This document shows, piece after piece, positions 5,468 through 7,419 of a stretch of 10,007 bases of DNA. The DNA lies in the UHGV virus genome UHGV-1346345; one strand, written 5' to 3'. The notes below the pieces were generated by a model, which worked only from the letters and a program-made list of their open reading frames with translations, ran no database searches and was not told where the DNA came from. This DNA comes from a virus. Within the stretch, counting starts at the first letter, position 1. Each line of letters begins with the position of its first letter. Position numbers and translations under genes: made by a program.

Positions 5468-7419
5468 CACCGAAGACCCGACCATGACAGGGAAGTTAAG
5501 GTCTGGTGCTATCAAGCGTTTTAAAGCCTGCCTGAAGAAAGTTGCGGATCCGTATATCGCCATACTGGACAGAATACAATACACCCTGGCTGTTAATAAA
5601 AAATACACCTTCCAGATCTACATCGACGAATTACATGATTTGCTGGAAGACGCCAGCGACATGATTGATGAAATATTCGAGTTAACAGACCCGGAAAACT
5701 TCTGGTTCTGGCAGGAATACGTAAAGGTGGCATATCAGCGAGGCACTTCACAGGAATATGCCAACCTCGCTAACCAGTCAGTCACATATTCCAGGGCTTA
5801 CCCTGAAGTGTCGGCGGTATTAACCAGTCAGACCTATCGCACACGCCTTGCCCTGGTCCGTACCCGTGTATTTGAAGAGATGCGCGGGCTTACCGCACAG
5901 ATCAAGAAGGATATGGCCCGCCGATTAACTGAAGGCATGGCCCGCGGCTTAAACCCACTCGAAATAGCGCGTACATTGCAGCAGGAAACGCAATTGCCGC
6001 TATACAGGTGCAAACGTATTGCCCGTACTGAAATATGCACAGCGTTACGCACAGCGCGTATGGATGAGGCAGAGGCCGCATCGGATGAGCTTAATTTGCG
6101 CACGATGCAGATGCATATTTCGGCATTGTCACCGACTACCAGGCTGTCACACGCACAGCGACACGGGAAAACGTACACCATAGAAGAGCAGCGCGAATGG
6201 TGGAGCAGATCCCCTAATTCAATTAACTGTTACCTGCCGGGAACGGTTGTACACGATCCTCAATAGCGGGGTCAATCAATTGACGATCCAGATTANNNNN
6301 NNNNNGCGTTTCCTGCTGCAATGTACGCGCTATTTCGAGTCGGGAACGGTTGTACACGGCAGGTTTTTAGCTGGTTCAAAAGCGCATTACAGCGGGGAAG
6401 TCATCAAGATAATGACTAGAAGTGGCAGGAATCTCACCGTTACCCCTAATCACCCCATTATGACCAATCGCGGATTGATTCCGGCGGCAGAAGTCAACAA
6501 AGGAGATTATGCCGTTGCTTACAGCGGTAAGATCAAAAACACGATGCGGGTAACTAATCTGGATCGTCAATTGATTGACCCCGCTATTGAGGATGTTTTT
6601 AGTTCTCTCTCTGATATCGGCAAGTCTATCTCTGCAAGGGTGAGTGCTGTAGATTTCCACGGCGACGGCGGGGGAATGGATAAAAATATCGATGTTGTAA
6701 CCGCCGATGGGGAACTGGTTTTCACACCAGATGCCATGTGCAATGAGACTCTCGATAATCTCGCGCTCAAACATGCCAACTCGATCAAAGCGCCTGTGTT
6801 TTGCTCTTTTGGCTATAACAGCAGCGCTATCACGGCTTCCTCTTCTTGTGGTGAAAGCTGGTTCAGTAACAGCCCGTCTTTCGTCCGCAGAGAGATTTTT
6901 GTACCGTTCAAGCGCTCCTTCCTGTCGAGTTCTGTAGTGGAGGCCGTGCTTATCAAACAAGCGGCAAATGGCAATCCTACTAAAGCCGATGCGTTTACTT
7001 ATGGATTGGATGCTTTCCCCGGCGACGTGTCTGGCATAGAGTTCGTCAACGGTAAAATATTTTTCAATAGCTTTATCTGCGTTAGAGATGGACTTGAATC
7101 CGGCGCTTTTCATAGAAGTGATAACGTCTACCGTGGTTGTGTTAAACATCAAGGCGATATTATCGATACTCGTGCCGGACAGGTATTCTTTGATGAAGTC
7201 ATCGACATTGTTGTTAGCTATTATTCTGGTCATGTTTATGATCTCCAGGAGTTATCAGGTTTAATGATAGCAAATGGATTAATTGCGAGCAACTGCAAAT
7301 GTAGCACGATTACCGTATTAGTTGATGAAGACGGTAATATATTAAACAAACGAATATTAGATCGGGCGCAAGAAAACTATAAGGTTGCGCACGCTAAATA
7401 TGGCGAAGATTGGGAGTAA
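5409..7419 (+). CDS. head morphogenesis protein (Mu F / SPP1 gp7-like) precursor containing an intein; frame broken by the gap block at 6256-6358
   Basis: N-extein 5409-6227 (alternative starts 5412 or 5457) carries Mu F-like motifs (RIARTE, HISALSPTTRLSHAQRHGKTY). C-extein 7294-7419 is CKCSTITVLVDEDGN... The frame is continuous once the 103-bp artefact is removed. Confidence 0.7.
6238..6358. repeat. 18-bp direct repeat (6238-6255 and 6341-6358, cgggaacggttgtacacg) flanking the N10 gap 6296-6305 and two inverted copies
   Basis: 6256-6295 is the reverse complement of 6555-6594 (40 bp) and 6306-6340 is the reverse complement of 5957-5991 (35 bp). Collapsing the direct repeat and deleting 6256-6340 restores the intein frame (...CYLPGTVVHGRFLAGSKAHYSGEV...). 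Confidence 0.85.
6376..7233 (-). CDS. HTH-containing Vsr/DUF559-like (PD-(D/E)xK) endonuclease ORF, antisense and nested inside the intein
   Basis: 285 codons open on the - strand. GGAG lies 9 nt upstream of ATG (7231-7233 on -). Two HTH-like segments (SIDNIALMFNTTTVDVITSMKSAGF; SIQSISKRIGFSRIAICRLFDKHG). C-terminal EREIIESLIAHGIWCENQFPIGGYNIDIFIHSPAVAVEIYSTHPCRDRLADIRERTKNILNSGVNQL matches the DUF559/Vsr-like pattern as I recall it. The last ~60 aa are antisense to Hint blocks A/B and may be read-through. Confidence 0.4.
   Translation of the reverse strand: MTRIIANNNVDDFIKEYLSGTSIDNIALMFNTTTVDVITSMKSAGFKSISNADKAIEKYFTVDELYARHVAGESIQSISKRIGFSRIAICRLFDKHGLHYRTRQEGALERYKNLSADERRAVTEPAFTTRRGSRDSAAVIAKRAKHRRFDRVGMFEREIIESLIAHGIWCENQFPIGGYNIDIFIHSPAVAVEIYSTHPCRDRLADIRERTKNILNSGVNQLTIQISYPHRVFDLTAVSNGIISFVDFCRRNQSAIGHNGVIRGNGEIPATSSHYLDDFPAVMRF

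Follow-up and report, generated by a model that had tools for sequence, protein, structure and literature searches.

We analysed a 10,007-nucleotide stretch of the virus genome UHGV-1346345 (the whole stretch is called the window below), which covers the head-assembly region of a tailed phage near Escherichia phages mEp010 and mEp021. The Mu-F-like head morphogenesis (MuF) gene of this phage contains an intein, and the opposite strand of the intein contains a complete open reading frame (ORF) for a putative homing endonuclease, written in the same codon triplets as the sense frame. The features of the locus are listed below, where dN/dS is the ratio of nonsynonymous to synonymous substitution rates, pLDDT is the local distance difference test score as predicted in AlphaFold2 (AF2) models, and HTH stands for helix-turn-helix.

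5409-6227, + strand: N-extein, Mu-F-like head morphogenesis (minor head) protein (Pfam Phage_Mu_F, E 5e-11)
6228-6254, + strand: intein start, block A, Cys1-Tyr-Leu-Pro-Gly-Thr-Val-Val-His (CYLPGTVVH), as read from the sequence
6255-6357: probable scaffold artefact within the intein, composed of an inverted copy of ~6556-6595, a gap of ten Ns (N10), an inverted copy of ~5961-5994 and a duplicate of GGGAACGGTTGTACAC
6358-6540, + strand: remainder of the Hint N-terminal splicing lobe
6442-6453, + strand: block B, Thr-Pro-Asn-His (TPNH)
6560-6770, + strand: sense segment facing the nuclease core, with 'DFHGD' at 6652-6666; conserved and predicted to be partly structured
6771-7180, + strand: sense linker, Ser/Gly-rich read-through of the antisense HTH region (pLDDT <50, dN/dS 1.25)
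7181-7293, + strand: Hint C-terminal lobe with block F 'GHVYDLQE' and block G '...ANGLIASN' (pLDDT 84-93, dN/dS 0.03)
7294-7419, + strand: C-extein, beginning with the +1 Cys (7294-7296) and ending with the stop codon
6376-7233, - strand: antisense homing-endonuclease gene, 285 amino acids, in the same codon triplets as the + frame
Residues ~7-43 and 53-95 of the endonuclease, - strand: two HTH units
Residues 156-285 of the endonuclease (6768-6379), - strand: Vsr-like (putatively EDxHD-type) nuclease domain, after a helical linker
7243-7246, - strand: Shine-Dalgarno-like GGAG, 9 nt upstream of the antisense ATG, within the Leu-Gln codons of block F
7264-7292, - strand: speculative weak promoter candidate, TTGCTC (7292-7287), 17-nt spacer, TATCAT (7269-7264), within block G

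On the + strand, the N-extein protein is ~100% identical to the intein-less allele of mEp010, which reads ...SRSPNSIN/CKCSTITV... across the insertion site (DNA of the mEp010 site, ...CCTAATTCAATTAAC/TGCAAATGTAGCACG...; DNA of the intein-less MuF insertion site, ...TCAATTAAC/TGCAAATGT...). The DNA match to mEp010 resumes exactly at 7291, with 99.5% identity. The intein comprises 321 codons, from CYLPGTVVH to GHVYDLQELSGLMIANGLIASN, and is followed by Cys; its terminal Asn lies at 7291-7293. The junction N/C(Y/F)LPGT is found in nearly all related loci, and the C-terminal motif is likewise conserved across them, reading GHVYDLQE...ANGLIASN/C at 7228-7296 of the window, with Ser as the penultimate residue instead of the commoner His, which occurs in some relatives. 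The first Cys (6228-6230) and TPNH are invariant in 45 representatives of the related loci, chosen to be <90% identical to each other. Pfam Intein_splicing matched the intein with a large internal gap, and NCBIfam intein_Nterm matched above its cut-off. In an AF2 model built with 13 database homologs, residues 1-60 and 281-317 were predicted with high confidence and residues 143-273 had a pLDDT <50; the predicted ends adopt the Hint fold, with ~100 residues aligning to Hint domains. With its block A and B residues, blocks F and G with Asn and Cys +1, an in-frame insertion site and known empty alleles, the element belongs to the class 1 inteins. The need for a functional MuF protein, together with the sense dN/dS of 0.03-0.17 over the Hint lobes, suggests that the protein is spliced.

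The N-terminal part of the intein is interrupted by an N10 gap (6296-6305), which had been missed by an earlier reading of this DNA made from its letters alone (the sequence-only reading). On the left of the gap, 6257-6295 is the reverse complement of 6556-6595; on the right, 6306-6339 is the reverse complement of ~5961-5994; and the 17-mer GGGAACGGTTGTACACG is present on either side. Since joining 6254 to 6358 gives a single unbroken reading frame, alignable over its full length with every homolog, we treated 6255-6357 as an assembly artefact. The actual intein would then consist of 6228-6254 and 6358-7293 and encode 321 amino acids, a junction that the duplicated 17-mer and the homologs both point to. 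An identical copy that would show this junction was not found among the complete E. coli genomes, none of which has the intein.

On the - strand, the ATG of the endonuclease (7233-7231) complements the His codon of the block F motif 'GHVYDL', and its TGA stop complements a Ser TCA codon (6376-6378) near block A. The + frame is open from 6307 to 7419 in the window, and the other two antisense frames have 11 and 22 stops. The start codon is kept in 39 of the 45 representatives (37 ATG, one TTG and one GTG), and a Shine-Dalgarno-like GGAG, AGGT or GGAGGT is found 7-9 nt upstream of it in 29.

We found the antisense-endonuclease layout in all 98 related loci examined. These include the complete genomes of Vibrio phage vB_VaM_H2 and Cronobacter phage ES2, finished Enterobacteriaceae chromosomes, 79 IMG/VR contigs and three species-representative bacterial genomes (Pseudomonas paraeruginosa, Atlantibacter and Rhodoferax); in Gordonia phage Vivi2 and Salmonella phage PhiSTP2, an annotated MuF or minor capsid coding sequence (CDS) has the tblastn match on its opposite strand. 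Frames were counted in 96 sequences (the window and 95 fetched loci). The sense frame that shares its triplets with the endonuclease had no stop in any of the 96, and the other two opposite frames had 4-34 stops each. As TTA, CTA and TCA codons on one strand are stops on the other, we estimated their expected number from the codon usage of the extein of each locus itself. About 260 such codons were expected in the endonuclease ORFs of the 45 representatives and none was observed; for the window ORF, 12.8 were expected and none was seen (P = 1.3e-7). This result supports the conclusion that both frames are held open by selection.

The strand on which selection acts changes along the intein. Codon-position diversity among the 45 representatives was highest at the sense third position at 7293-~7190 and again at ~6490-6228, and at the antisense third position, where it was saturated (0.65-0.70), at ~7190-6690; within the linker (6771-7180) the sense first position varied most. 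The dN/dS values, given below as medians of seven independent pairs of 82-95% identity, switch as well.

Hint C-terminal lobe: sense 0.03, antisense 1.58 (the latter defined in 3 of the 7 pairs)
HTH and linker region: sense 1.25, antisense 0.17
Nuclease core: sense 0.76, antisense 0.14
Endonuclease tail over the Hint N-terminal lobe: sense 0.17, antisense 0.57

The switching of both measures indicates that the coding strand of the middle of the intein is the -, and that on the + strand this part is no more than read through. The sense linker at 6771-7180, of which 14.5% is Ser, is selected for freedom from stop codons and for nothing else.

The fold of the antisense product was approached by structure prediction, because in searches against Protein Data Bank (PDB) sequences, Pfam, PHROGs and NCBIfam the only matches were weak ones to HTH and REase. 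The AF2 model (mean pLDDT 74.8; 67-92 over residues 156-285) shows an alpha/beta domain preceded by the two HTH units and a helical linker, and by fold comparison the modelled domain has a Vsr-like catalytic fold. For the window protein Pfam returned no more than weak HTH and REase_MTES_1575 matches, and it gave an HTH_7 match above the cut-off for its homolog in the Vibrio phage; neither PHROGs nor NCBIfam holds a family for it. D182 and E193 are invariant, H198 is retained in most members, and the three are spaced (11 and 16 residues) much like Vsr D51, F62 and H69; they may form part of the composite E-D-x-H-D motif.

Much of what the sequence-only reading had proposed thus stands. The 285-codon antisense ORF, its GGAG site and its sharing of triplets with the sense frame were found as described. 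The predicted fold, the HTH units and the antisense dN/dS of 0.14-0.17 bear out a complete Vsr-like endonuclease nested antisense, and the expected avoidance of TTA, CTA and TCA is borne out by the family-wide count. Of two comparisons that it had suggested, codon periodicity on each strand placed the coding of the middle on the - strand, and related phages with or without the intein showed a conserved layout in the carriers and a precise empty allele in mEp010. Its picture of Hint motifs at the two ends, with a middle that is a pure shadow of the antisense gene, needs amendment: the linker (residues ~143-273) is predicted to be unstructured, as proposed, but the antisense ORF overlaps blocks B and F, and sense residues ~85-146 show signs of constraint of their own.

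We examined the overlap in the 45 representatives. The final ~55 residues of the nuclease domain overlap Hint block B, and the endonuclease ORF crosses block B in all 45, ending at sense codon 2-26 (codon 16 in 30 of them); the AF2 model, with good confidence, has one helix and one strand of the nuclease domain over block B. Diversity at fourfold-degenerate sites was 0.68-0.74 (saturated) under one-strand constraint and fell to 0-0.17 (frozen) at two places. The first is block B, in which antisense Gly (GGT at 6442-6444), Ile and Val lie opposite sense Thr ACC, Asn AAT and His CAC. The second encodes 'AVE' of the endonuclease (GCC, at 6661-6663, in 44/45; GTG, at 6658-6660, in 41/45; and TAC in 42/45) opposite the sense 'DFHGD', within residues 81-130 of the sense model (pLDDT 74-85). 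The two frozen patches are evidence of real dual constraint. Some of the sense conservation is a by-product of the genetic code, as antisense Lys, Glu and Gln codons give sense Leu and Phe. The sense segment at ~6560-6770 lies outside the ~100 residues that align to Hint domains.

A more far-reaching proposal is that the region is an ancient antiparallel dual-coding unit, in which the whole Vsr-like domain (~130 codons, 6379-6768) faces block B of the Hint N-lobe and a 'DFHGD' module (~6560-6770), both being under purifying selection at shared codons, and in which the start and ribosome-binding site of the endonuclease sit inside block F. We consider the case for and against this proposal evenly balanced. 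If true, the splicing domain and the endonuclease would be mutually locked, so that decay of either harms the other; the locking could account for persistence across phages of Proteobacteria and Actinobacteria, and the unit could account for reports of 'endonuclease-less' MuF inteins such as the Methylococcus one discussed below.

The distribution of the intein was analysed next to that of its exteins. The exteins of the window are 97-99.5% identical to those of phages and of 35 E. coli prophages without the intein, and in mEp010 and these 35 prophages ...SIN-CKCS... is uninterrupted. The intein was found in none of 5,426 complete E. coli genomes, 35 of which have the empty allele. This presence/absence pattern is as expected for a mobile intein. 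We found no close intein donor, the best intein relative being ~53% identical.

Taken together, we favour a mobile MuF-type intein whose splicing and homing functions are encoded on opposite strands, and put the probability of this reading at about 0.8. On the + strand, the late head-morphogenesis gene would be translated straight through the element; ~65 N-terminal and ~40 C-terminal residues would fold into a Hint domain that cuts out the 321-residue insert and joins ...SIN to CKCS..., yielding a normal MuF protein. The ~130 residues in the middle would form a disordered linker whose sole requirement is the lack of a stop codon. The - strand would carry an independent gene, running from an ATG opposite the block F His codon to a TGA opposite a Ser codon near block A, for a protein with one to several HTH DNA-binding units and a Vsr-like (EDxHD-type, I-Bth0305I-like) nuclease. 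The nuclease would cut intein-less MuF alleles of co-infecting phages or resident prophages, and repair would copy the intein in. By avoiding TTA, CTA and TCA, the endonuclease gene would leave the sense frame open, and where the nuclease domain meets block B both proteins would constrain the same codons. The layout would also uncouple expression of the endonuclease from that of the late head gene.

Several observations weigh against this reading. A consensus promoter scan upstream of 7233 gave nothing usable, and the candidate TTGCTC-17-TATCAT, with 8/12 consensus positions, is below the scan threshold and has a comparable counterpart in only 12/45 representatives. The profile searches suggested by the sequence-only reading placed the sense translation as Hint with both Pfam and NCBIfam, but left the antisense nuclease below the cut-off (PF18741, 21.7 bits versus 38.2). 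A profile search of solved structures with the endonuclease gave 3hrl at E 0.19 and did not list 3r3p, so the tie to the EDxHD family is weak at the sequence level. The putative general-base His varies in distant members and is replaced in one (P0006). The divergence of intein and extein is broadly correlated across loci (their identities to the window co-vary over 44 representatives), which agrees with largely vertical descent and with homing confined to close relatives. Between the window and mEp010, mismatches near the insertion site are scattered and show no co-conversion gradient. We infer that the antisense gene is transcribed and translated and that its product cleaves the empty site; current homing we infer likewise, as the correlated divergence and the lack of both a close donor and a co-conversion gradient keep it at that level.

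The correlated divergence and the missing co-conversion gradient also suit the most probable alternative, in which the antisense gene is real and conserved but past homing, has another role (superinfection exclusion by cutting intein-less relatives, or DNA-binding regulation), and the intein is inherited mainly vertically. The absence of the intein from E. coli genomes that include 35 empty alleles agrees with such a role, as do the patterns suggestive of vertical inheritance reported for several VSR-like groups in a 2025 preprint (bioRxiv 10.1101/2025.01.02.630785). However, presence and absence are precisely polymorphic in exteins of 97-99.5% identity, the whole ORF is under purifying selection, HTH repeats with a Vsr-like nuclease are the architecture of a characterised homing endonuclease, and two actinophage groups in the same preprint have patterns consistent with horizontal transfer. 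We therefore regard a non-homing role as unlikely.

The opposite-strand mobile intein has three further competitors, all of which fare much worse. A fractured gene with a split intein (Dassa 2009), in which the MuF halves would be made separately and trans-spliced around a free-standing endonuclease gene, has in its favour the same Vsr-like fold type, the same place between the Hint lobes and the phage context; it is very improbable, as no locus has a stop in the sense frame and selection against one is strong, and the continuity of the sense frame excludes that layout. That the antisense ORF is the shadow of a real sense-strand domain, with the middle of the intein coding for a functional sense protein, is still less probable and is already contradicted, even though chance frequently leaves same-triplet antisense frames open, a structure is predicted for sense residues ~85-146 (pLDDT 74-85) and some antisense-synonymous sites are frozen. 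Lastly, the inversion of a truly sense-oriented segment during assembly, offered by the sequence-only reading and made thinkable by a scaffold with six N10 gaps and inverted-duplicate flanks, one of them copying 6556-6595 beside the intein start, is refuted: the orientation is the same throughout the 98 loci, among them the vB_VaM_H2, ES2, Vivi2 and PhiSTP2 genomes, the Enterobacteriaceae chromosomes and the 79 IMG/VR contigs, 6358-7293 lies inside one contig, and, as the ORF overlaps blocks B and F, inverting the segment would not give an in-frame endonuclease between intact Hint halves.

We next asked how widespread the endonuclease is. An exhaustive HMMER search of a 1.84-billion-protein library returned 790 clusters (at 50% identity) at E<=1e-30 and 2,418 at E<=1e-10. 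The proteins of the family are 230-446 amino acids long, reflecting one to ~five HTH units (two in the window ORF); as the number of units varies, the length of the sense linker shifts in ~50-residue steps, leaving the Hint lobes unaffected. A hidden Markov model of the family detects the endonuclease in every related locus. A word-indexed database of called proteins yielded eight relatives only, since gene callers rarely call the antisense ORF. By tblastn, the endonuclease is present in 47 of 50,697 phage records, which by phage name belong to Pseudomonas (15), Salmonella (10), Gordonia (8), Klebsiella (8), Idiomarinaceae (2), Edwardsiella (2), Vibrio (1) and Cronobacter (1). No free-standing relatives outside inteins were found among the loci whose DNA was inspected, which does not cover the DNA context of the HMMER hits.

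The antisense ORF is unannotated in the four phage records that we opened (Vibrio H2, Cronobacter ES2, Gordonia Vivi2 and Salmonella PhiSTP2), where the only CDS over it is a sense one named 'head morphogenesis', 'minor capsid' or 'hypothetical'; in the remaining records with a tblastn match, the sense CDS at that place bears a name of the same kind. One family member is labelled 'helix-turn-helix domain-containing protein' by NCBI. Being unannotated and without a PHROG or NCBIfam model, the endonuclease makes such inteins appear endonuclease-less. The sense gene is also called unevenly: in two Enterobacteriaceae chromosomes MuF is either called as a 313-residue fragment (L009) or uncalled (L006), with the sense frame open for 580 codons in both. 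For annotation pipelines, the family provides a tangible class of genuine antisense genes that are suppressed in gene calling.

The wider window contains the following features, with additional head genes downstream of the MuF gene.

1529-2029: small terminase (Sf6-like)
2042-2545, + strand: free-standing HNH_3 endonuclease (Pfam E 3.5e-22)
2529-4016: large terminase
From 4074: portal
From 5409, + strand: Mu-F-like head morphogenesis gene
249-258, 783-792, 5092-5101, 6296-6305, 8053-8062 and 9637-9646: six N10 scaffold gaps

The HNH_3 gene lies between the small and large terminase genes, overlapping the start of the latter (2529), and is the second gene of a selfish-endonuclease type in the same head module as the intein. 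Upstream of the small terminase, ~740 bases (793-1528) are free of + strand ORFs of at least 60 amino acids, and their GC skew is strongly positive (0.24-0.29); the stretch may be a cos/pac or regulatory region. An Rfam scan of the window, 793-1528 included, gave no match. Each of the gap flanks that were compared, the two of 6296-6305 and the left one of 5092-5101, duplicates in inverted orientation a sequence at a distance of a few hundred bases. Hairpin-type chimeric contig ends of this kind are typical for amplified or short-read scaffolds. The gaps and their flanks disrupt the portal, the MuF gene with its intein, a gene at 7410 and the capsid gene.

Finally, we compared the locus with known systems. 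The sequence-only reading knew of no described precedent for the arrangement, and there it was mistaken. Antisense VSR-like endonucleases have been described in full inteins of actinophages, minor capsid proteins being among the hosts (Gosselin, Arsenault & Gogarten, bioRxiv 10.1101/2025.01.02.630785). In that preprint, the MuF-like minor capsid class held only non-canonical inteins, an actinophage VSR-like homing endonuclease matched 3R3P by HHpred (E 4.6e-5), and phylogenetic evidence of transfer was presented for some groups. Our tblastn search linked the window ORF to the Gordonia phages Malisha, Vivi2 and Angelicage (E 2e-16 to 6e-12), where the match is antisense to the MuF-like minor capsid CDS. 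With an ORF opposite the intein and over its splicing blocks, an uninterrupted sense frame and homology to the Gordonia ORFs, the window element is an intein of this antisense-endonuclease type. It differs from the actinophage examples in that its ORF is 26-28% identical to the Gordonia ones and resides in an Enterobacteria phage, a relative of mEp010 and mEp021, within a large proteobacterial-phage branch (Pseudomonas, Salmonella, Klebsiella, Vibrio, Cronobacter, Rhodoferax and Idiomarinaceae), and in that it begins in block F and has a nuclease domain spanning block B. Earlier still, as cited in the preprint, antisense LAGLIDADG endonucleases were reported in the Synechocystis DnaX and Chloroflexus SpoVR-like inteins (Gorbalenya 1998, Gogarten 2002). 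By that cited description, they resemble the window in having an endonuclease opposite a contiguous read-through intein, and differ in host gene and in the family of the nuclease, LAGLIDADG rather than Vsr-like.

Other systems share parts of the arrangement. I-Bth0305I, of the EDxHD family, combines N-terminal HTH repeats with a C-terminal Vsr-like domain (Taylor 2011, PMC3239194), an architecture shared by the window ORF; unlike the latter, it is encoded in the sense orientation within a group I intron. Fractured genes have a free-standing Vsr-like endonuclease gene between split-intein halves (Dassa 2009, PMC2677866). As in the window, a Vsr-like gene takes the usual position of the intein endonuclease, mainly in phages; in contrast, the host gene there is divided into two ORFs that depend on trans-splicing, whereas the sense frame of the window is continuous and under selection. 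In the ShiLan insertion in a phage methylase, an HNH endonuclease is hidden out of frame (Arsenault 2025, PMC11855218). Here too the endonuclease occupies another frame of a stop-free read-through insertion, but in a shifted frame of the same strand, with no splicing domain and from the HNH family. The intein in the Mu-like prophage protein F (Mu gp30) of Methylococcus capsulatus Bath was described as most similar to archaeal IF-2 inteins and 'lacks a recognizable endonuclease' (Ward 2004, PMC517821). It interrupts the same Mu F host family, and the Hint N-lobe of the window also matches the archaeal IF-2 intein model best; the Methylococcus intein may be of the same type as that of the window.

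The window is therefore a proteobacterial-phage example of a known but rare intein layout that is not restricted to actinophages; the endonuclease family is also present in phages of Pseudomonas, Salmonella, Klebsiella, Vibrio, Cronobacter and others. Three points extend what has been published: the scale of the family, the quantitative evidence that stop codons are avoided, and the reach of the nuclease domain across catalytic Hint blocks, with co-constrained codons. The locus provides a clean and strongly supported case of two functional proteins encoded on opposite strands of the same phage codons, and a natural system in which to study the use of synonymous codons on one strand to leave the other open.

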